Shown here: in pieces, positions 1-9,857 of the stretch
How positions within the stretch are numbered: the stretch's first letter is position 1
How the letters are laid out: each line of letters starts with the position of its first letter
From: Phycisphaerae bacterium
Lineage (GTDB): Bacteria > Planctomycetota > Phycisphaerae > UBA1845 > Fen-1342
Direction of reading: 5' to 3'
Assembly (NCBI GenBank): GCA_050115495.1
Contig: JASFQK010000043.1
Coordinates: forward strand, 1-55,553
Length of the DNA: 55,553 nucleotides
Notes under the pieces: generated by a model
Seen by the model: only the letters and a program-made list of their open reading frames with translations
Database searches by the model: none
Told to the model about the DNA's origin: nothing
Translations under genes and position numbers: made by a program

Positions 1-125
1 GCGGACGCTGAATGGCGCGAAGCTTCTGCCGGACGTGATCGCCAGCGTCCGCTTCATCGACGGAGAAAAACCCGAGAAAGCCGCCGCCTGATCACGACGC
101 CATCAACGACTTTTGACAATAGCTC
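1..125 (+). mobile_element. Right end of an IS256-family insertion sequence (transposase C-terminus 2..91 plus terminal inverted repeat)
   Basis: Frame 2 reads RTLNGAKLLPDVIASVRFIDGEKPEKAAA* (stop 89-91), matching the typical IS256 transposase tail (xLNGxxxLPxVIxGVxFxDG...AA*). It is followed by CAACGACTTTTGACAATAGCTC ending at 125, which resembles IS256-family ends. Confidence 0.75.
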
Positions 126-490
126 AGCGAGGTGTTCCCCATGTCTTTGAAGTAGACCAACACTACGGGCCGCCCGTTATCCCGCCAGCCTTTCACGGCT
201 GCCTTAATCTCGTGTATGGCCCCTTTCCTACCTACGCGGCGGTAGAAGATGCCGATCACAATGTCGGCACCGCGTATGTTCAGTGCTGGGTCGACTATCT
301 CCTCTTGGATGTCCCGCCTAGCCAGCCCCGGTTGGGCATCGTTCTCCCACGTGTAAAGCTCCAACCCGATACGCTTGGCCTTATAGAGCTGATTGATCTC
401 CTCAATAACACCCCTCGCAACATCCCTCTCTTCACTGACATCGCCCGGTGACACCAACACGACGCGGTACACGACCTTCATTTCTGGCAT
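92..490 (-). pseudogene. DUF4062-domain protein, N-terminal fragment truncated by the IS at 125/126
   Basis: Motifs RVVLVSPGDVSEER, LELYTWE, ADIVIGIFYRRVG, IHEIKAA and VLVYFK are DUF4062-like. The last ~10 codons (SYCQKSLMAS*) are read from the IS end. Confidence 0.7.
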
Positions 491-1374
491 GTCTGCGCTC
501 CTCCCCCACCGGCTGGTGCCGGCAGATGCTCGCGTGGATACGTTGCCAAGAAGCTCTCCCGAATCGCCTCGAAGTCCGCGACTGCAAGGGCTCGGGCAAG
601 CACGGTGTCGGTATCGCTGAGGATGCTACCCAACGAAACGGACACGCCGTTCTGGATCACGTAACACACACCACCCGGGTCGATGAGAAAGTGCTTGCGG
701 TCAGCTCCGGAGGCTGTGTAGCTCACGACCTTCACACCGCAGGCGGAGAGGTACCCGGTCGCAGCGGAAACTATGTCGACGAAACGGTAATGTGGCAGTC
801 CAAGGAGCCGCCGACTCGCAAGGTTACGGCCGATGTAGAGTACCTCATAGAACTTCCAGACGTCTGGAAGAGCGCTGGCAGGCACGGCGCGGACTAGCCC
901 CGTGATCTCCGTCGCGTTCAACGCGGTGATTACTGTTCCCAGTTTGATCTTGGGAGTTCGCGGCGAACAACGCAGGTCATGAATGATCTGGATAGTGGCG
1001 TCATGATGCCGGCCACAACCAGGGCGGAGTTGCGCCGCAACCCGTTCGTTCATGGAGTCCAACGGCAGAGCAAGCCAGTCCAGGACCGACGCCAGTTCGT
1101 GAACGAGGGCGACATCGACCCGACCGCTCGTTGACAACACTACGTACAGGCCTAGGCCCTGCGCGTGGTGGACAACCTGGTTGATACTCGGGTGGAACAG
1201 GGGCTCCCCGCCGGAGAGCACTACGGCCTGAGCCATATGTGTACGAAGCCGCGTGAGAATCTCGCAGGCCACATCAACTGGCATGTGACCAGCACTGGGC
1301 GGGGGACCGAAGCAGAATGGGCACTGACAGCCACATTTCCCGGTGACAAGCACGTCAGCCGCATAGGGCGCCAT
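478..1374 (-). CDS. Radical SAM protein, viperin-like
   Basis: CxxxCxxC (CGCQCPFC), SGGEP, LDWLALPLDS, KIKLGTVITALN, PDVWKFYEVL and FLIDPGG. Start placed at ATG 1374 after an AAGGA RBS (ORF track starts at 1461). Overlaps the DUF4062 start. Confidence 0.8.
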   Translation of the reverse strand: MAPYAADVLVTGKCGCQCPFCFGPPPSAGHMPVDVACEILTRLRTHMAQAVVLSGGEPLFHPSINQVVHHAQGLGLYVVLSTSGRVDVALVHELASVLDWLALPLDSMNERVAAQLRPGCGRHHDATIQIIHDLRCSPRTPKIKLGTVITALNATEITGLVRAVPASALPDVWKFYEVLYIGRNLASRRLLGLPHYRFVDIVSAATGYLSACGVKVVSYTASGADRKHFLIDPGGVCYVIQNGVSVSLGSILSDTDTVLARALAVADFEAIRESFLATYPREHLPAPAGGGGAQTCQK

Positions 1375-1632
1375 GGAATGACATCCTTGGACGCGTTCCG
1401 GGCGATCGAGACTTGGATTCGGCCTGCCGAAGCACATTGCCTCTTCATTGTAGTCGCCCAATCAAGCCAGTGAAGAGGCCATCGTGGACTCCGACTTGCC
1501 GGATAGCAGAGGATGGCTTGCCGTCACGCCGCCACCGGAGAGAACCGTCAGATGTCCCGCGACGTCACTTAAGCGGACGGCACCGCCCCTGGCCTGCTCC
1601 CCAGAGACTCATCCAGGTGTTATGAGAGTCCG

Positions 1633-1665
1633 TTGCCCAGCCGCGGCGTAACCGCGGCCGGGCAA
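1633..1665. terminator. GC-rich hairpin downstream of the SIMPL gene
   Basis: TTGCCC-A-GCCGCGG-cgtaa-CCGCGGC-C-GGGCAA; no clear U tract. Confidence 0.35.
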
Positions 1666-1830
1666 GGCGGCTGCCGATGAAAGGGCAACGTCACGCCTCT
1701 GGGTAGATCGTTCGCTCGCTCCGCCAGGCGGACGCCGAGTCGACCGCGAGCACGCCGTCGCCCCGGCAAACCCGGTCCACCAGCGCCGGAGGGGGCTCTC
1801 ACCTGAGCCATCCCGCGCATCTGCACGCGC

Positions 1831-2598
1831 TTACTCCACCGCAATCCCAAACGTCGCCGTCACGACCGCCTGCACGTCCTTGTCGATCGTATCCGTGTCG
1901 TACAGGCCGTAATCGCTCACGTCCGTCGACAGCGGCTCCGTCACTTGCAACACACCCATTCGCGCGTCCCGCAATTCACCCAACCGGCACCCAGCGCTCG
2001 TGGCGATCTGCTCGGCCCGGGCCCGGGCGTCCGCCGACGCCGCGGCCATCAGGTCGATCTTCAACTGGGCAAGCTGCGTGTAGTAGTACCGCGGCGCGTA
2101 CGAGATGACGTGCAGCCCCTCCTGGAGTAACTCGGTGACGCGTCCCGCCGACTGGTTGACGGCCTGCACATCCGCCGTTGTCACCGTGAACTGCCGCCCG
2201 AGCGAATACTCGGCGACCTCGCGCGTCCTGTTCCCCTTCGCGTCCCGCGCGTAGTGCTCCGTCGTGCGAATCGCCGCCAAGCCGATCTCCGCATCCCGGA
2301 ACCCCATATCCCCCAGAAACCGGCGGACGCGCTCCGTCGCCGTCGCCAGGTTGCCGAACGCCTCGCGCAGCTCCGCCCCGCGGCCGCCCACCTCGATCTG
2401 CCACACCGCCCGATCCGAGACGATGCGTTGGCGCGTGGAGCCCTTCACGACGATGGTCTGATCGCGCCGCACCGCCTCGCGCCCGTTGGCCCGATACGCG
2501 CGCGCAGCGACCACCGTACTGGTAACCAGACTGACCGCAACCCCGAGCGTGATGACAATAGCGACAGTGATAGCGTGCAGACGGACGTGGCACTCCAT
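1831..2598 (-). CDS. SIMPL (DUF541) domain periplasmic protein
   Basis: N-terminal TM, TIVVKG...SDRAVW, AAASADARARAEQIA...LGELRDARMGVLQVT and C-terminal DKDVQAVVTATFGI. ATG 2598 follows a GGAGG RBS. Confidence 0.85.
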   Translation of the reverse strand: MECHVRLHAITVAIVITLGVAVSLVTSTVVAARAYRANGREAVRRDQTIVVKGSTRQRIVSDRAVWQIEVGGRGAELREAFGNLATATERVRRFLGDMGFRDAEIGLAAIRTTEHYARDAKGNRTREVAEYSLGRQFTVTTADVQAVNQSAGRVTELLQEGLHVISYAPRYYYTQLAQLKIDLMAAASADARARAEQIATSAGCRLGELRDARMGVLQVTEPLSTDVSDYGLYDTDTIDKDVQAVVTATFGIAVE

Positions 2599-2737
2599 GG
2601 CGCTCCTCCCTGAGCTGAGAGATTGAAGCAAACCCAACCGTTCCCCGAGTCATCCTTGACTCGCCTGATGCGTCGATTCTACACCCGCTGTCAACAGGTA
2701 GCGCCCAAATTCTCCAACGACGCGCCGGCCGGGCTCT

Positions 2738-4606
2738 CTAACCGCGCGTCAGCCGCAGTTCAAAGCATGCCCCCCGCCCCTCGACGTCCACCGGCCGCAG
2801 GTCGCCGCCCATCGCCCGGGCCAGCCGCCGGCTCAGCGACAATCCCAGCCCCACACCCGGCGCCGAGTTCGCCGCCTGCCGTGCCGATTTGTGGAACGGG
2901 CGGAACAGCCGCGCCGCCTCGCCCGCCGCCAGCCCCGGCCCGTAGTCGCGCACCTGCACGATCCCCCACGCCCCGTCCTCCGCCAACGCCAGCACCACCC
3001 GCGCCGGCTCTCCGTCGGCCGCGTACTTGCACGCGTTGTCCACCAGGTTGAACAGAATCTGCTCCACCGCCGACGCATCAGCCGCCACGTGTGCCTTCCC
3101 CACGTCCCCCGCCGGCGGCGTGACGACCAGTTCGAGCCCCGCCCGCCGCGTCCGCTCGGCCAGCCGCGATCGCACCCCCTCGACCACCTCCGCCAGCCCG
3201 ACCCGCTCCAGCCGCCCCGGTCCGCGCCCCCGCTCCAACCGGGCGTACGCGAGCACATTCTCGACCAGGTGGCTCAACCGCACCGCCTCGCCCTGGAGCG
3301 TATCGAGGTAGCTCCGCCGCTTCTCCTCGCCCACCACCAGCCCCTCCGCCAGCATCTCCGTGTACAGCCGGAACGTCGTCAGCGGCGTGCGCAGCTCGTG
3401 CGTCACCGCCGACACGAACGTCGCCCGCCGTTCGCTCAGCGCCAGGATCCCCAGCAGCAGCGCCGCCGCCGCAATCGCCGCCAGCAGCACGCAGCCCCAC
3501 GCCACCATCAGCGACACCCGCAGCGGCGACGGCACGATGGCGACATTCGCCAGCGGCGGCCCCGGTTCGAGCGCCACCGGCAGCGCCGCCAGAGCCCGTT
3601 CGCCGCTCCGCCCGCCGCCATTCGGCAGCGGTACCAGCCGCGCCTGCGGAAACAGGTCGGTGATCTCGTCGCCCAGGTACGCCTGCAAGGCCGGCCAGTC
3701 CAGCCAGCACCCCTGCACGTACTCCCGCCCGTTCACGGCTACCCGCCGCGCCAGCAGCAGCACGTCCCCGACCCACAGCGGCCGCAGCACACCCGCCGCC
3801 ACCTCGCCCGACCACTGCCGAACGTTCCCCATGTTGCTGTTCGCCGCGATTGACTGCTCCGCCGCCCGCTGCCGCGCCGCCCGCTCCTGCACATCTCGCT
3901 TGGCGAACAGGCTCCCCGTCATCGAGGGCACCGACGGCCGCCCTCCGCCCTTCCGCTGCTGTTTGGACGGCTGTTGCCCGGCAAGCTGCTGCTCCTGCTG
4001 CTCAGCCTGCTGCGGCTCGGCACTCTGCGGCATAGCGCTCTGTTGCGCGTCGTCTGGCATCGGCACCGGCGCCACGACCGACATCGTCGGCAACGGCCGC
4101 TCCAACGGCAGATCCTTGAACGCCTCCACCTTCACCAGCCCCGCCAGCCGCTCCAGCCGGCCCTCCGCCTGCTTGATCCCCACGGCGCTCGTGAACTGCT
4201 CCTCGGCCAGCGCCCGCATGTCCCCCGTCGGCACCTGCGGCGACGTCAACTGCCCCGCCTCATCAAACTGGAAATGCACCAGGATGTACGGCGAAACCTG
4301 CGCCAGCAGCGGCGACGGCACGAGCACATCGCCGAACTCAATCCGGTTGTACATCCGCGTGTACGCCCGCTCCGCCGGATAGAACGCGCTGTACGCGAAG
4401 TACGGCCGAGCGCTCTCCTGGGCGACCAGCGGCGTCAGGGCCGAGTCCAGCCGCCACAGCGCCAGCCGCACCGACTCGTCCGTCGTCGCCCGCCGCCGCG
4501 ACCGGACGTCCAGCTCCAGCACCGTCACACTCAGCCACGCCAGCGTCACCAGCACCACCCCCAGGCACACCGCGAACGCCAGCCAGACGGGCCACGTGCG
4601 CCTCAC
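2738..4606 (-). CDS. Membrane sensor histidine kinase
   Basis: Two TM segments, H-box FVSAVTHELRTPL, N-box NLVDNACKY, G1 DYGPG, G2 GVGLGL; Gln-rich periplasmic region. Confidence 0.95.
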   Translation of the reverse strand: MRRTWPVWLAFAVCLGVVLVTLAWLSVTVLELDVRSRRRATTDESVRLALWRLDSALTPLVAQESARPYFAYSAFYPAERAYTRMYNRIEFGDVLVPSPLLAQVSPYILVHFQFDEAGQLTSPQVPTGDMRALAEEQFTSAVGIKQAEGRLERLAGLVKVEAFKDLPLERPLPTMSVVAPVPMPDDAQQSAMPQSAEPQQAEQQEQQLAGQQPSKQQRKGGGRPSVPSMTGSLFAKRDVQERAARQRAAEQSIAANSNMGNVRQWSGEVAAGVLRPLWVGDVLLLARRVAVNGREYVQGCWLDWPALQAYLGDEITDLFPQARLVPLPNGGGRSGERALAALPVALEPGPPLANVAIVPSPLRVSLMVAWGCVLLAAIAAAALLLGILALSERRATFVSAVTHELRTPLTTFRLYTEMLAEGLVVGEEKRRSYLDTLQGEAVRLSHLVENVLAYARLERGRGPGRLERVGLAEVVEGVRSRLAERTRRAGLELVVTPPAGDVGKAHVAADASAVEQILFNLVDNACKYAADGEPARVVLALAEDGAWGIVQVRDYGPGLAAGEAARLFRPFHKSARQAANSAPGVGLGLSLSRRLARAMGGDLRPVDVEGRGACFELRLTRG

Positions 4607-5310
4607 GGTCCCCCCTCCGCCGGCGTGAACTTATACCCCCGGCTCCGCACCGTCTCGATGATCCGGGCGTCCTCGGCGTTGTCGCGCAGCTTCTCCCGCA
4701 ACCGGGCGATGTGCATGTCCACCGTCCGCGTCTCGATCCCCCGCGGGTCGAATCGCCACACGCGCGACAGGATCTCATCACGCGAAACGGCCCGCCCCGG
4801 ATTCGCCGCCAGGTAGCGCAGCAACTCCGCCTCGCGTTCCGATAACTCCCGCCGCTCCCCATCCGCGAACCGCACTTCGCTCCGCGCCAGGTCCACCACC
4901 CCCCCCGGAATCGGCACTTCCACCAAATCCAACGGTCGTTCCGGCGATCGCCGCAGCACGGCCTCCACCCGTGCCAGCAGCTCCTTCACGCTGAACGGCT
5001 TCACGACGTAATCGTCCGCCCCCAGCCGAAACCCCCGCAGGCGGTCGTTCTCTTCCCCGCGTGCCGTCAGCACAATCACCGGCGTCGTCGGCCGCGCCTC
5101 GCGCACCGCCGCCAGGATGTCGAGCCCGTCGCCCCCCGGGAGCACGAGGTCGAGCAGCACCAGGTCGTACTCCTGGTGCAGGGCCGCCTCGCGCCCTTCG
5201 TCGGCCCGTTCGGCCTGTAGCGTCTGGTATCCGGAGACCTCGAGCGCATCCACCACGCCCCGCCGGATCGCCCGGTCATCCTCGACCACCAGAATGCGCC
5301 GCCGCCTCAT
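4603..5310 (-). CDS. OmpR/PhoB-family response regulator
   Basis: ILVVEDD, LLDLVLPG, LTAR, GADDYVVKPF; wHTH RTVDMHIARLREKL...IETVRSRGY. Overlaps the kinase gene by 4 bp. Confidence 0.95.
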   Translation of the reverse strand: MRRRRILVVEDDRAIRRGVVDALEVSGYQTLQAERADEGREAALHQEYDLVLLDLVLPGGDGLDILAAVREARPTTPVIVLTARGEENDRLRGFRLGADDYVVKPFSVKELLARVEAVLRRSPERPLDLVEVPIPGGVVDLARSEVRFADGERRELSEREAELLRYLAANPGRAVSRDEILSRVWRFDPRGIETRTVDMHIARLREKLRDNAEDARIIETVRSRGYKFTPAEGGP

Positions 5311-5445
5311 CGCGCCACCTCGTTTGCCAAGTCTGTCGCCGGACGCACTGCCTACAGCTTAGCCGGCCGGCGCTGCGCCTCCAACTGCGCCGCGCCGGCC
5401 AGCCTCTATCCACGCCGGTCCGGGAGGGGCACGCCCCGTCCGACG

Positions 5446-7719
5446 TCAGGATCCTTGCGGCTCTTTCACGAGCACCAGCTCGTCGCCGACCTTCAGCAGA
5501 ATCTCACCATCAAGTGCTACGCACCCCTGCCGCCCCTCCGCCACCAGCCGCGCCAGCAGTTGGGCGAACTCCGGACTGCCGAACACAACTTCGCGCTCCG
5601 GCTTCTGGCTCGCGGCGCTCACCACGCGGCTGTCCACCCACCGCCCGCCACGCCGGAAGAACGCCCGGTCGTTCATCTGCTGCACGGCGGACTCCGACAC
5701 GCTGTTCATGTTCTCGTCGAGGAACGAGTTCCGCGAATTCAGCACACTCTGGCCGCGCTGCCGGTTGAGGTTCATGCTCTGATTCACCGAACCCATCCCC
5801 GAGCGTACAGCCATCGCCCGCCCGCCCAGGTTCTTCTGCGCCTCGGCCATCACCTCGTCCCGCTTCGTCAGGTCCGTGCCCTCGCGGGCCAGGAACGCCG
5901 TGTACTCGGTCAGCACGCCGTACTCCGTGCTCAACTGCACGATCTCGTCGACCAGCTCCTTCAGGCCCGGATCGCGGATCGTGTCGGGCCGCAACGTCGC
6001 CGGATCCGCCCCTTTCGCCCGGATGTCATCGACGAGCGTGGCGATGCGCCGACTGGCCCACAGCCGCGGCACGAACGCATTGCGCGTGCTGGCCCGGTCG
6101 AGCGTGAAGTTCAGCTTGAACGCCTTCGGCCGGTTGAAGTACTGCCCGCGCAGATAGAAGTGCAGCGGCTGACCACCCACGTACCGCCCCAGCACGACGA
6201 GTTGATCGCCCGCGTACAGATCCGGCAGCGTCGTCGGCAGCATGTCGCAGATCCGTCCCGGCGCCGGCCGGGCATGCTCGTCCACCACTTCCAGCGTCGG
6301 ACCGGCGAGCACCGGCCCTTCCAACTCGCCGAACACCTCGGCCACCTTCACCTCGACGTTCTCCCCGGGCAGGACAAACGTGGACATCGCCCGCGAGTTC
6401 TGCGCCAGCGACGTCAGCAGCGGCGTATTGACGTCAACCCCGACGCCAAACGTGAAGACGCGCCGCTGACATGGATTCACCTTCGTCGCCAGTTCGCGGA
6501 TGGCCACCTCCGACGTCTCGCCGACGGTCGGTAGCCCGTCCGTCAGGAACAGCACGATCGGCAGCAGGTTGCCGGTCTGCGGCGATTGCAGCGCCGCCTG
6601 GAGCGCCTCGTAGATGTTCGTGCCGCCGCCCGGCCGCAGCGCCTGCAAGTACTCCATCGCCAGCCCTTCCGTCCGGGCGTCCTTCCGCACCGCCCGCTGC
6701 GAGAAGCGCGACACCGTGCTGTTGTAGTCGATGATGTTGAAGTACTCGTCCGGCCGCAGACCGGCGATGACCTGCATCGCCGCCTCGCGGGCTTGGTCCA
6801 TCTTCTCCCCGCGCATGCTCCCCGAGCGGTCGAGCACCAGCGTCACCTCGCGAAGCTGCCGCACGGGTGGATCATCCTCCACCAGGTCCGCCGGCAAACC
6901 CGCCAGCAGCAGGAAGTACCCCCCATCCCCCGCCGCGTCCGGATACGCCAGCAACGACGCCGTGACGCCCTCCTGGGCGATCAGGTACGACAGCCGGAAC
7001 GGCCCTGGCATGGTCGTCGCCGGCTCCTTCACGCGGATCGAAACCACGTTCGCCGCACTGCGCACCGTGAATACCTCGTGCGACGGAGAATAAACCGTCG
7101 AGATCGGCTGCTTGCTCTCGATCCGCACGGACACGTTCCACGGCACCGCCAGGGCCAGCGACTCGCTTCGCGGCAGGTAGTAGTCCACCCGGCTTCCGTC
7201 GCGCGGCAATACGTGCTCGTACGTCAGCCGCACCTTCTGCGTCCCCCGCGCCGGCACCGGGAACACGCTCGACCGCACCAGGTTGAAGCCGGCGAATTCC
7301 AACAATGCCGGGTCCTTAATCCTCGCCACGATCTCGTCGTACGTCTGCTTGGCCTCTTCCTGAGGCAGCACGACGGCGGTTGGCGCCGCCCCGCTGCCCT
7401 GGAACGTGAACCCGCGGACCGCCGCCCTGTCAGGCACCGGCACCAGCAGCTCCGCGTCCGTATCCCGGCCGCTACGGTTGCGCAGGCTGATGTCCATCGT
7501 CGTCGTCGCCACCTGCTCGATGATGACCACGCCGACGTCGACGGCCGTGATCTCAATCGCCTCATCCCCCTCCATGGGGAACGCCCGCGACTGCGGCATC
7601 ACAACGTTCGACGCCCGCCGCCCACCACTGAGGGCCGACTGGGCCAGGACCGGCGTCGCCAGCCCCCCCGCCAGCACCAGCACCGCCACCCATACTCCGG
7701 ATCGTTCTTTGCGCGTCAT
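5446..7719 (-). CDS. Secreted VIT + vWA domain protein (inter-alpha-trypsin-inhibitor-like)
   Basis: Signal peptide from MTRKERS (ATG 7719), VIT domain (DPALLEF), intact MIDAS DRSGSM...GGTN...LTDG, and C-terminal RLWASRRI/LTEYTAFLA. Confidence 0.9.
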   Translation of the reverse strand: MTRKERSGVWVAVLVLAGGLATPVLAQSALSGGRRASNVVMPQSRAFPMEGDEAIEITAVDVGVVIIEQVATTTMDISLRNRSGRDTDAELLVPVPDRAAVRGFTFQGSGAAPTAVVLPQEEAKQTYDEIVARIKDPALLEFAGFNLVRSSVFPVPARGTQKVRLTYEHVLPRDGSRVDYYLPRSESLALAVPWNVSVRIESKQPISTVYSPSHEVFTVRSAANVVSIRVKEPATTMPGPFRLSYLIAQEGVTASLLAYPDAAGDGGYFLLLAGLPADLVEDDPPVRQLREVTLVLDRSGSMRGEKMDQAREAAMQVIAGLRPDEYFNIIDYNSTVSRFSQRAVRKDARTEGLAMEYLQALRPGGGTNIYEALQAALQSPQTGNLLPIVLFLTDGLPTVGETSEVAIRELATKVNPCQRRVFTFGVGVDVNTPLLTSLAQNSRAMSTFVLPGENVEVKVAEVFGELEGPVLAGPTLEVVDEHARPAPGRICDMLPTTLPDLYAGDQLVVLGRYVGGQPLHFYLRGQYFNRPKAFKLNFTLDRASTRNAFVPRLWASRRIATLVDDIRAKGADPATLRPDTIRDPGLKELVDEIVQLSTEYGVLTEYTAFLAREGTDLTKRDEVMAEAQKNLGGRAMAVRSGMGSVNQSMNLNRQRGQSVLNSRNSFLDENMNSVSESAVQQMNDRAFFRRGGRWVDSRVVSAASQKPEREVVFGSPEFAQLLARLVAEGRQGCVALDGEILLKVGDELVLVKEPQGS

Positions 7720-7795
7720 CTTCGTTCTCGCTCTGCTGGGGCCACTGACCAGTCCTTCACCTGTCCTGAGTATCGCTGCGCCGCCCCCGCGGTGC

Positions 7796-7812
7796 TGTAA
7801 AAGGGGTGTAAC
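7796..7812 (-). promoter_or_regulatory. Candidate OmpR-family binding box (direct repeat with 11-bp period)
   Basis: TGTAAA-AGGGG-TGTAAC, about 77 bp upstream of the vWA gene start. Confidence 0.5.
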
Positions 7813-8315
7813 ATCGCGCCGGCGGAATTCCGCCAAACCCCGCCAGCTACGTGTTTTCCGGGCGTTTCTGTCGGCGGAACGTCACAAAAAACCGCCGCTA
7901 AGGTTGACAATCGATTCTTCTCGACGAATCCTTAGGATGAGCGAGGTCGTGTTGCTCTTCCTAACTTTTCCACCCCTCGCTCGACAAGTTAGGTCGGCCC
8001 GCTGGGTCGATCGACTGCCACGAGCTGACATCAAACCAGCCTCATCATCATCGTCCTACCTTGGAGGCTGCCGTGGCAGATGCCTGGCAGCGGTCGCACT
8101 GCTGTAGCCCGCGACCAACTCTGGTGATTTGAGAATTCGGTTGCTTGTCTGACCGTCCCACTGTGTGGGCACGCGGTCGCCGGAGCCGGATCGTTCCGAC
8201 CCGCCCTCCTGCCGCCGCTCCCTGCCCCGCTATGGACCGTGTGCGCCCGCACCCGTCAGGGCCGCCCGGCGACGGTGACGCCGGCGGCATGGCCGTGACA
8301 GAAAGGAGGACCGCC

Positions 8316-9857
8316 ATGCCCTGCAAACGACCCGGTCTCGTCGAACGTAGTTTCGACCGCGCGTTGTTCGCCGCCGCGGTGCTCTACGCCGCCGCCATGG
8401 TCACCCAGTTCGGCGTACGCTCGCCCAACCGCGTCGAATATATGGATGACTCACTGGCCCCGGGCGAACTCGACGCCGCCATCCTGCAAACGGCCGGCAA
8501 CCTCCAGGCCCAACTGGCCACGTTGCCGCCGCCGATCGTCGAAGTTCCCCCCTACCACAAGTACTTGACCGCTGCCCATGCCGCGGGCACGCTCGACGGC
8601 CCGCTCACGGTGCCGGCCACGCTGCCCCGCGCCGTCGATTTCGGCAATCCCATCCCCGACCTGACCCCGCGTGACCCGCGCGGCGTGCGCTTGGCGCAAC
8701 CGCTCCCGCCCGGCCGGCTTGCCGTCTCCGCCGGCCGTAGCGTGCTGCGTGTCGCCAACGACGACCGCCAGGCCACGTCGTGGGTCACGGTCGGCGGCCT
8801 GTTCGATACCGCCGCCCAACGCCAGGCCTTCCGCGACGCCGGCTATGCCGAGTTCCGTTGCCAGGTCTGGATCGGCGCCGTCGAAGCCCAGCGGCAGGAG
8901 CAGCTCCCAGACGGCACCTACACCGCCTGGGAGCAAGTAGCGATGCAGCCGCTGCCCGGCACGCCGGACCTCTCCACTGTTCCCTGGTCCGACCGCGCCG
9001 CGCTCGCCGAAGCCCACACCTGGATGAAGGCATCGCAGGAGCAGCTAACGCAACCGCCCTTTCGCGAAGTGATCGCCGGCAGCACGTGGCAGCATCCCTT
9101 CGGCGACGACGCCACGCGGAGCGACCTCGTCCCCGTCTGGGTGCACGACACGAACGTCATCCCCGGCCACACATACCGCTATCGCATGCGCGTCGACCTG
9201 TGGAACGCCTATGTCGCCCGCGAGGATCTGCTCGCCAACGCCGACGACGCGAGCCGCTGCCTGCTCGCCGGCCAGTGGTCCGCGCCGAGCGAACCCTACA
9301 CCGTCGCCCGCGACGTCCAGTTCTTCATCTGTGGCGTCAGTCCGGCGGCGAAGAGCGTCTACGTCGAAGTGTGGAAGTGGTACGAAGGCACGTGGTTTCG
9401 GCGGAGCTTCCCCGTCACGGTCGGCGAGGTTATCGGAACCGTCTGCGACGTCGCCATCGGCCGTGATGGCGCCGGGCATACGCTTCGGGCGCCTGTGGAC
9501 TTCTCCACCGGCGCGTTGGCGCTCGACGTGCGCTTCGACGAACTGCTAACCACTCGTGACGAGAAGGTCACGGCCAACAACGACCCCGCAACCGCCCACG
9601 ACACGGCGGCCGCTGGTGACCAGGTGAATGGCCCTGGCACGGCCGCCGCTGTCGTGGTGCATTTACGTGATACGACGACGGCGGCACTCACGTATGTGGA
9701 CGCACTGGGCGACCAGGTCCGCACGAAGTTCGCCGCTCAGGATCGTTATGACCCGATTCGTAAGCAACTGGCCGTCGCCGTGCCGCCCCGCCCGGCGCCG
9801 GCCCCCGAACCTTCCCCTCCTCCCAGGCCCACCGTACCGGTGGGTCCACGTCCCTAG
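8316..9857 (+). CDS. Hypothetical membrane-anchored protein with an Fn3-like segment
   Basis: AGGAGG RBS before ATG 8316, N-terminal hydrophobic segment, WVHDTNVIPGHTYRYRMRV Fn3-like motif, Pro-rich tail, host-like codon usage. Confidence 0.7.
   Translation: MPCKRPGLVERSFDRALFAAAVLYAAAMVTQFGVRSPNRVEYMDDSLAPGELDAAILQTAGNLQAQLATLPPPIVEVPPYHKYLTAAHAAGTLDGPLTVPATLPRAVDFGNPIPDLTPRDPRGVRLAQPLPPGRLAVSAGRSVLRVANDDRQATSWVTVGGLFDTAAQRQAFRDAGYAEFRCQVWIGAVEAQRQEQLPDGTYTAWEQVAMQPLPGTPDLSTVPWSDRAALAEAHTWMKASQEQLTQPPFREVIAGSTWQHPFGDDATRSDLVPVWVHDTNVIPGHTYRYRMRVDLWNAYVAREDLLANADDASRCLLAGQWSAPSEPYTVARDVQFFICGVSPAAKSVYVEVWKWYEGTWFRRSFPVTVGEVIGTVCDVAIGRDGAGHTLRAPVDFSTGALALDVRFDELLTTRDEKVTANNDPATAHDTAAAGDQVNGPGTAAAVVVHLRDTTTAALTYVDALGDQVRTKFAAQDRYDPIRKQLAVAVPPRPAPAPEPSPPPRPTVPVGPRP

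Follow-up and report, generated by a model that had tools for sequence, protein, structure and literature searches.

A radical SAM gene of a viperin sister family and its insertion-split DUF4062/PLD-fold partner: a possible former anti-phage cassette in a Phycisphaerae bacterium

Does a gene for a radical S-adenosylmethionine (SAM) enzyme with viperin-like motifs form an antiviral module together with the short gene that follows it, and is this module still intact? The question is raised by the left end of contig JASFQK010000043.1 from a Phycisphaerae bacterium (assembly GCA_050115495.1). The window analyzed here (55,553 nucleotides) is the whole of this contig (C43), one of the 85 contigs of the assembly (G000), and it carries on the minus strand an open reading frame (ORF) for a radical SAM (rSAM) protein at 478..1461 and a downstream ORF at 92..490. 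Viperins are the textbook antiviral enzyme common to bacteria and humans, and a sequence-only reading of the locus had proposed that a divergent viperin relative, perhaps with a different substrate, is coupled to a DUF4062 gene for a nucleotide-processing effector, in a defence island that continues leftwards. Our analyses place the rSAM protein in a sister family of the prokaryotic viperins (pVips), assign to its partner a DUF4062 domain and a phospholipase D (PLD)-type fold, and indicate that the partner gene was split by an insertion sequence (IS). We see about an even chance that the two genes are a horizontally acquired cassette that was once an anti-phage module and is now inactivated by the IS.

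The segments on which the viperin comparison had been based are all present in the minus-strand ORF 478..1461: CGCQCPFC, which is the CxxxCxxC motif for [4Fe-4S]/SAM binding as read from the sequence (1312..1335, minus strand, codons 1335..1312), SGGEP, LDWLALPLDS, KIKLGTVITALN, PDVWKFYEVL, and FLIDPGG. The cysteines C15, C19, and C22 as well as the GGEP motif are invariant in a 25-sequence alignment of the family (A1), and a profile–profile alignment with 13 true pVips (A3) lets each segment fall on the matching viperin block, these blocks being LDWxGLSIDS, RLKxNTVVTxLN, PERWKVFQV, and SYxMxDPxGR. The parallel thus reflects real homology and not chance, and the homology between family and pVips (hhalign probability 100, E 4.5e-48, 251 columns, positions 4–260 versus 4–257) also reaches past the rSAM core through the C-terminal extension of viperins. 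Pfam recognizes the generic radical SAM domain only (PF04055, 43.2 bits, cut-off 29.5), and more specific resources point to viperins: the top NCBIfam match is viperin_w_prok (NF038283) with 62.6 bits, followed by NirJ with 41.6 bits, PADLOC matches its pVip model with 73.5 bits over 224 of 262 positions, and the top matches among annotated plasmids are named “viperin family antiviral radical SAM protein” (28–29% identity). In a search of the PDB with the family profile, viperins are at the top (9dfu, 6b4c, 7n7i, and 5vsl, with E-values from 1e-30 to 1e-24), and SkfB (2e-20) and MoaA (8e-15) stand behind them. The designation as a divergent viperin relative therefore holds as far as the kinship is concerned, as evidenced by the best NCBIfam, PADLOC, PDB, and plasmid matches, but the protein is not a pVip, as its 62.6 bits have to be compared with an NF038283 cut-off of 180. 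In 401 genomes of the phylum that we used as a score reference, true pVips reached 190.9–296.4 bits (16 matches in 14 genomes), and all other proteins reached at most 82.7.

The family to which the protein belongs is large. A HMMER scan of 1.84 billion representative sequences returned 2681 relatives at E ≤ 0.001, 290 at E ≤ 1e-10, and 12 at E ≤ 1e-30, the closest with 35% identity, and among the best 149 of these relatives about 10 are true pVips and most others fall into the viperin sister family. For 41 of the 76 closest relatives, viperin_w_prok is the top NCBIfam match (E ≤ 1e-25, 90.6–122.7 bits), and one of the 76, P0042, passes the viperin cut-off (273.7 bits). Reciprocal hidden Markov models separate the groups: the window's rSAM protein scores 308 bits with the family model and 89.6 with the pVip model, true pVips score 114–152 and 321–433 bits, and generic rSAMs score 44–107 and 53–97 bits, respectively. 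The sequence-only reading had suggested a phylogeny with pVips and other rSAMs, and such a tree (IQ-TREE quick search, LG+G4, SH-aLRT, 67 rows) confirms the relationship, with a clade of 35 rows for the sister family and one of 18 rows for the pVips (support 99 each), and at the same time shows that the query, as one of the 35, stands outside the pVip clade. The pVips are joined at 88 by three intermediates (support 95), and the family, pVips, and intermediates are set apart with a support of 97 from 11 generic rSAMs of the phylum; these took the place of MoaA as outgroup, since this genome yielded no MoaA above cut-off. A FastTree calculation with 164 rows, from which ten fragments shorter than 230 residues had been left out, agrees with this topology. 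Judging by these comparisons, the rSAM protein belongs to a sister family of the viperins and is not itself a prokaryotic viperin.

The rSAM gene likely begins with the ATG at 1374 and not with the TTG at 1461, as an AAGGA lies upstream of this ATG and the homologues begin at the same place. With this start, the gene covers 478..1374 on the minus strand and encodes 298 residues. The public gene call (protein P0001) comprises 252 residues and starts from an internal methionine past the CxxxCxxC motif, and the catalytic cysteines are thus missing from the database protein. As to the chemistry, we took the pVip residues H15, S114/D116, R128, N160, and R183/K185 (A3 numbering) to be those with roles in nucleoside triphosphate (NTP) binding. 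The residues D116, R128, K158, and W184-K185 are kept, their family equivalents being the Asp of LP.D, R118, K145, and W174-K175. In contrast, the pVip-invariant H15 (VNxH), S114 (SxD), and N160 (KxN) are replaced in the family, the latter two by Pro and Gly, and the pVip-invariant R183 (RWK) is variable and a Val in the query. The idea of a different substrate has thereby become plausible, as it is H15, N160, and R183 that are replaced. A nucleotide remains the likely substrate on these residue comparisons, and a reaction identical to that of viperin is not likely.

The second gene turned out to differ from what had been proposed, as it is an IS-truncated stump, with bases 92..125 being IS DNA. 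Window 1..125 is the right end of a multicopy element on the plus strand, with a terminal repeat that ends with ...ATAGCTC at 125, and it contains at 2..91 (plus strand) the last 29 codons and the stop codon of a transposase gene, which match the C-terminus of a congener's 428-aa transposase. The stretch 1..125 is identical at 21 other contig ends, and the identity ends exactly at the ...ATAGCTC of base 125. A second repeat class with the same terminal heptamer ATAGCTC represents the other end of the IS; the assembly contains 22 and 33 copies of the terminal 30- and 31-mers, and the unitig depth in the likely source run is 655 at the IS end versus 18.1 in the cassette. The congener copy is 91% identical over window 1–125 and closes the 428-aa ORF, which has 184.1 bits on PF00872 (Transposase_mut). 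Target duplications of the IS256 family are 8–9 bp long. On the basis of the PF00872 transposase, the ...ATAGCTC at both ends, and 9-bp duplications in two contig pairs, we assign the element to the IS256 family; the interior of the element is not in this assembly.

The first of these two pairs is formed by the window and contig C10. In the window, the IS end is followed by the 9-bp target-site duplication AGCGAGGTG (126..134, no strand), and at the left end of C10 the flank past the opposite IS end starts with CACCTCGCT, which is the reverse complement of AGCGAGGTG; the second pair is C84_L with C25_R. The duplication of the window matches 1 of 27 opposite-end flanks, with about 1e-4 expected by chance. 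Past the duplication on C10, the reading frame of the partner runs on for 296 residues to a stop, and the joined C43–C10 frame is collinear across the junction with an intact orthologue from Bacillota (L031). In the truncated ORF 92..490, the native 5' part is 126..490 on the minus strand, and the IS DNA at 92..125 contributes the final 11 codons together with the stop at 92..94. Because the frame continues on C10, the 132-aa ORF represents residues 1–121 of a protein of about 415 aa, followed by 11 IS-encoded residues. The partner gene was, by this reconstruction, split by an IS256-family insertion, and the cassette in this genome is dead. An IS-free contig was not found in runs X1 and X2, in which rare variants drop from contigs, so that an intact allele may exist in the population. 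Beyond the partner gene, C10 continues with a CPBP/Rce1-like protease, a Cys/Met pyridoxal-phosphate enzyme, and an aspartokinase–homoserine dehydrogenase. The defence island that had been expected to continue leftwards is thus ruled out, as genes of amino-acid metabolism and housekeeping and the CPBP protease are found there instead.

The same IS is present in about 20–35 copies as judged from end counts and depth, and is behind a large share of the contig breaks of the assembly. The 9-bp duplications let contigs be paired, C43_L with C10_L and C84_L with C25_R. At the left end of contig C11, the left end of the IS is partially duplicated in tandem, with about 55 bases repeated right after ...ATAGCTC.

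What protein did the uninterrupted partner gene encode? Its N-terminal part (residues 1–121) is a divergent DUF4062 (TIR-like) domain, an assignment that we base on transitive homology, a conserved Glu, and the TIR-like fold of the model. The Pfam model of DUF4062 (PF13271, cut-off 24.7 bits) does not match the window protein even at E 10, and the orthologous partners of two Bacillota loci, L031 and L051, score 17.8 and 16.7 bits. A word-index homologue search with the 132-aa ORF returned only the ORF itself among near-length and longer proteins, and the relatives came from genome searches alone. These revealed relatives of the domain in 15 out of 400 further genomes from the phylum, and the relatives are mostly the N-termini of proteins of 970–1610 aa, the best with 49% identity (E 7.6e-27, in a 973-aa protein) and 44% identity (E 4e-20, in a 1035-aa protein). 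At E ≤ 0.01, 19 of the 21 aligned relatives match PF13271 (best 1.9e-12), and a single one matches PF05014. The presence of a DUF4062 domain, which the sequence-only reading had recognized, is thus substantiated by transitive homology. The PADLOC model PDC-S60 matches the first 83 positions of the domain with an E-value of 1e-10. Gly87 and Glu94 (codon 209..211, minus strand) are invariant in the alignment of the 21 domains (A4), and the shared S-G-T-x-E-E block suggests that Glu94 is equivalent to the catalytic Glu of characterised DUF4062 proteins, which is described in 2026 preprints as E87, E98, E103, or E108. The structural model has a predicted local distance difference test (pLDDT) score of 85.4 and VIA Z-scores of 8.0–8.8 to TIR domains and nucleoside deoxyribosyltransferases, with a best Foldseek E-value of 1e-3; these are middling values, but the two folds dominate the match list. 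According to these preprints, DUF4062 is a TIR-like NADase that has a catalytic Glu and acts in Avs2, Vulcan, Vesta, Swarozyc, and Evangelion, so that the earlier idea of a nucleotide-processing effector can be kept in a narrowed form, namely as NAD+ hydrolysis. Two weak DUF4062-like relatives are encoded in the same genome (C40:53314-53643 and C73:2742-3083), with 28–29% identity, in ORFs of 273 and 728 aa.

The C10-encoded part of the partner gave no match with Pfam and PADLOC at E 10. Its structural model, calculated from a 33-sequence alignment, has pLDDT values of 74–98 per 10-residue block over residues 70–296, except for two loops with values of 57–64, and points to the PLD superfamily. 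VIA gave a Z-score of 13.8 to NucT (138 of 158 residues aligned, root-mean-square deviation 2.4), followed by FAM83B and vaccinia F13 (13.4), TrmBL2 (13.2), PLD3 (12.9), and Nuc (12.3). In total, 117 chains have a Z-score of at least 8, and the best 50 of them all have the PLD fold; these matches include HKD enzymes, polyphosphate kinase C-terminal domains, and HKD-less forms such as FAM83 and TrmB/TrmBL2. Foldseek E-values to PLD-fold structures range from 8e-7 to 1e-5. The predicted fold of the domain is thus that of the PLD superfamily. The family has its own invariant residues, which are K91, H107, G109, S111, P141-W142, E230-P231-Y232, E249, and W270, and we read the motif DIPxxTxLT..EPY as the counterpart of the HKD strand-turn-strand, based on secondary structure and on a non-significant hhalign alignment with PLDc_2 domains, in which non-conserved positions of the C-terminal domain stand opposite the H and K columns. 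A pointer from the ESM Atlas to DUF5919 (scores 0.91; 15% and 43% of the members of two clusters) is a lead only, as the DUF5919 model was silent in the genome at E 1. Taken together, homology and models indicate that the uninterrupted partner of about 415 aa consisted of a DUF4062/TIR-like domain and an HKD-less PLD-fold domain.

The two genes are closely linked. The stop codon of the rSAM gene (480..478) is inside the partner ORF, whose ATG (490..488) is preceded at a distance of 8 nt by GGAGGA, and the 13-nt overlap at 478..490 (minus strand) agrees with the overlap noted before; an alternative partner ATG at 481..479 would result in an ATGA overlap with the rSAM stop. From this arrangement, we regard the genes as translationally coupled. 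The low GC content that had been noted for the pair was also confirmed: it is 58.7% versus 66.7% for the genome, among 5302 windows of 2.2 kb from the genome, a mere 0.47% are equally low, and the GC content at third codon positions (GC3) is 0.68–0.71 in the pair versus 0.81–0.92 in the flanking genes. Upstream of the ATG at 1374, at a distance of about 75 nt, there is a promoter-like site TTCACT-16-TACAAT (1447..1474, minus strand), which is weak evidence, as the consensus scan found 1 site versus 0.4 expected in shuffles.

Is this combination a peculiarity of one genome? A long rSAM match occurs in 43 genome loci, and in 32 of them a gene for a PLD-fold domain homologue adjoins the rSAM gene. 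These 32 loci include kin and are not independent, and they correspond to about four independent lineages, counting this genome, with three gene arrangements. In 29 Streptomyces loci and one Nonomuraea locus, the genes are convergent, and the partner of about 570 aa has N-terminal tetratricopeptide repeats (TPR) instead of DUF4062. In L031, the partner (403 aa) is on the same strand directly downstream of the rSAM gene, and in L051 it is upstream on the same strand (438 aa), both with the weak DUF4062 signals mentioned above. Sequence comparison thus identifies the PLD-fold domain, and not DUF4062, as the conserved partner of the rSAM protein. A single clade with a support of 95 unites the partner-linked rSAMs with the query, L014 (Chlorobium), and L035. 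In each of the 30 actinomycete loci, the rSAM and partner genes enclose a NUDIX gene of the MutT/NUDT1 kind; in L031 the NUDIX gene follows the partner, and in L014 it precedes the rSAM gene. Beside the window's own cassette, no NUDIX gene was found. The actinomycete loci carry a fourth gene of 230–305 aa upstream of the partner, overlapping or abutting it (L015–L060, at about 8000..8900), for which neither Pfam nor the PDB offered a relative and the window's genome contained no homologue. This four-gene cassette is repeated in 9 metagenome contigs and is complete in all 7 that reach far enough. In the 400 other genomes of the window's phylum, the partner profile found no match.

Other branches of the rSAM family adjoin TIR-AAA, SIR2, nSTAND3, and PNP genes. 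The closest rSAM by tblastn (E 5e-48) is that of Chlorobium limicola (L014), where an AAA-TIR protein, a 279-aa protein, and the NUDIX gene precede it; this contig stops 450 bp past the rSAM gene and does not reach a possible PLD-fold partner. In L048, from a Sulfuricellaceae metagenome-assembled genome, a SIR2_2 protein, three consecutive rSAM genes with one family member among them, and a phosphorylase-like PNP_UDP_1 protein form what looks like a multi-rSAM defence-type cluster. In L050 and L055 (Bacteroidota), the family rSAM is the last gene of a conserved five-gene operon, after a methyltransferase, two uncharacterised genes, and a second rSAM of 371 aa. In L046 (Bacteroidota), where the contig begins with this second rSAM, the two rSAM genes are followed by an nSTAND3 NTPase gene. 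In L062 and L063 (Candidatus Scatosoma), a 795-aa protein that contains an RNase III domain is directly followed by a 399-aa radical SAM–Smr fusion.

How could such a cassette function? As an anti-phage module, the rSAM enzyme would apply [4Fe-4S]/SAM radical chemistry to a nucleotide, as viperins do with NTPs, and its substrate or product would probably differ, given the replacement of three pocket residues that are invariant in viperins. Like the variable AUX region of DUF4062 defence proteins, the PLD-fold domain without HKD motif could be a regulator that binds a ligand or trigger; its fusion partner would be an NADase-type effector carrying Glu94 in this genome and TPR repeats in the actinomycetes. 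During infection, NAD+ would be depleted by the NADase, and phage nucleic-acid synthesis would be blocked by the rSAM product; where present, the NUDIX enzyme might process or detoxify the nucleotide product. A role in defence is suggested by the domain repertoire, which combines viperin kin, a DUF4062 NADase, TPR repeats, and NUDIX, and it is also consistent with the patchy, horizontally acquired distribution and the aberrant GC content. The TIR-AAA, SIR2, nSTAND3, and PNP neighbours in other branches of the rSAM family speak for it as well, as does the published Ophion system with its pVip-related rSAM. We regard it as unlikely, but worth stating, that the connection is tighter and that the genes form a multi-gene immune system, in which the PLD-fold domain would read or receive a modified nucleotide made by the rSAM enzyme and switch on interchangeable output or input modules (DUF4062 NADase here, TPR in actinomycetes), with the NUDIX enzyme for processing or as an off-switch.

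Several observations weigh against a defence cassette of this kind. In the surroundings, none of 36 proteins that flank 8 Streptomyces and Nonomuraea loci (survey with GC3-filtered ORFs) is typical for defence, and glycoside hydrolases, regulators, and transporters are found there; around the window's own cassette, no defence genes were found either. The partner was not detected in viral contigs or plasmids, and neither partner nor rSAM in phage and viral collections. As the actinomycete version has no NADase, the variants cannot all follow one effector logic. Regarding the partner itself, the DUF4062 domain of the window is not matched by Pfam and, in contrast to its closest relatives, is without a loop of about 12 alignment columns, and its PLD-fold domain does not contain the HKD motif HxK(x)4D(x)6GSxN; hhalign of the C-domain alignment A2 with 10 PLDc_2 domains was non-significant (probability 0.73, E 0.077). 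Whether this domain acts as sensor, enzyme, or adaptor is a guess. The rSAM score of 62.6 bits is below the curated viperin cut-off and within the range of generic rSAMs, which extends up to 82.7 bits, and the synthesis of 3'-deoxy-3',4'-didehydro-NTPs (ddhNTPs) cannot be assumed, with H15, N160, and R183 not being kept. The query is also on a long branch (1.26–1.74 changes per column), which may reflect decay after the loss of the partner. The defence role and the chemistry are inferred.

According to a rather improbable alternative, the genes are a small non-immune accessory cassette for nucleotide modification or metabolite tailoring, whose product might be a modified nucleoside or a secondary metabolite, and the DUF4062 fusion is a nucleoside-deoxyribosyltransferase-like enzyme. 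The catabolic and regulatory flanks in Streptomyces would agree with it, as would the fact that the phage, viral, and plasmid collections gave no match to the cassette; NUDIX, PLD-fold, and deoxyribosyltransferase-like enzymes all act on nucleotides, the model of the N-terminal domain fits nucleoside 2-deoxyribosyltransferases as well as TIR, and the one match to PF05014 among the 21 relatives points in the same direction. However, these relatives are N-terminal modules of 1000–1600-aa proteins, as in STAND/Avs immune proteins, the TPR fusions are in keeping with conflict systems, as is the patchy distribution by horizontal transfer, TIR, SIR2, and STAND genes adjoin other rSAM family branches, and no core biosynthetic genes are adjacent. 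It would also be conceivable that two independent defence genes are mere neighbours, with a divergent viperin that makes ddh-nucleotide terminators and a self-contained Evangelion-type DUF4062 protein. Viperins work alone (10.1101/2023.09.13.557418), the same is described for DUF4062 + AUX proteins (2026 preprint), and defence genes are often clustered. Nevertheless, we consider this distinctly unlikely: a PLD-fold partner occurs with this rSAM subfamily in Actinomycetota, in Bacillota, and here, in three arrangements and even where TPR replaces DUF4062, the 13-nt overlap indicates co-translation, and the rSAM is outside the pVip clade and lacks pVip-invariant residues. Very improbable, finally, is the assumption that the insertion is an artefact of metagenome-bin assembly and the 132-aa ORF a genuine stand-alone small DUF4062 protein. 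Such small proteins exist, Vesta being a described example, and the window is one contig of 85, with a C10 junction that is inferred and not sequenced through. An artefact would nevertheless have to account for the exact stop of the identity with the 21 contig ends at base 125, for a 9-bp duplication that matches 1 of 27 opposite-end flanks, for a frame continuation of 296 residues that is collinear with the intact L031 orthologue, and for a terminal repeat of the IS that encodes the last 11 residues of the ORF; moreover, in a separate build of unitigs from run X1, the module is likewise entered from the IS end, with DNA that is from the same sample and thus not independent.

To the right of the rSAM gene, window 1831..7836 encodes a SIMPL/DUF541 protein, a histidine kinase with a response regulator, and a 796-aa von Willebrand factor A-type protein. 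These genes have an ordinary GC content and no link to the cassette. An Rfam scan of window 1..3000 gave no match.

The large sister family, whose branches have their own specific partners, provides a map of how viperin-type chemistry has been re-used. If the cassettes defend against phages, they would join nucleotide-analogue synthesis and NAD+ depletion in a single module and could be a source of new antiviral nucleotides, and if the multi-gene immune system described above exists, phage defence would include signalling by a nucleotide made by a radical SAM enzyme.

In comparison with known systems, the cassette is likely an undescribed anti-phage module. We found no published description in the full-text literature on viperin phylogeny, viperin-like defence, DUF4062, and rSAM + Nudix anti-phage systems, the supplements of preprints being outside this coverage. 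A preprint on viperin evolution roots its tree on MoaA and does not mention the sister family in the passages considered, and the word “radical” is absent from the main text of the 2026 DUF4062 preprints, whose supplements with operon lists were outside this coverage as well. With the pVips (NF038283, PADLOC pVip), the family has in common the rSAM scaffold including the viperin-specific C-terminal extension, and the blocks CxxxCxxC, GGEP, (S/V)TNG, LDW..L..D, K.(N/G)TVVT..N, P..WK(V/L)(F/Y)Q, and (S/K)Y(L/M)..P.G, but pVips stand alone or with a kinase, whereas in the sister family the rSAM is accompanied by a PLD-fold protein, with NUDIX as an optional addition. The Ophion system is built on a pVip-related rSAM (OpnA) with a protein of the polymerase/histidinol-phosphatase (PHP) type (OpnB) and a phosphoribosyltransferase (PRTase; OpnC), as described in bioRxiv 10.1101/2025.09.30.679545. 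Neither a PHP nor a PRTase gene was found beside the rSAM gene of the window or on the C10 side, and by this description, not by the OpnA sequence, Ophion differs from the combination of a DUF4062/TPR–PLD-fold protein and NUDIX. The PLD fold of the partner is shared with FAM83 DUF1669, the C-terminal domain of TrmB/TrmBL2, NucT, Nuc, Zucchini, and PLD3/4; unlike the PLD nucleases, the domain has no HxK...D, and it has its own invariant residues and extra helices between strands. Avs2, Vulcan, Vesta, Swarozyc, and Evangelion, as far as described in the 2026 preprints, likewise have an N-terminal DUF4062 domain with the Glu in S-G-T-x-E-E and a variable C-terminal region, and it is the DUF4062 + AUX layout of Evangelion that resembles the partner protein of the window. 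The partner protein differs from these defence proteins by a DUF4062 domain that is too divergent for Pfam, by its C-terminal HKD-less PLD fold, and by its coupling to an rSAM enzyme.

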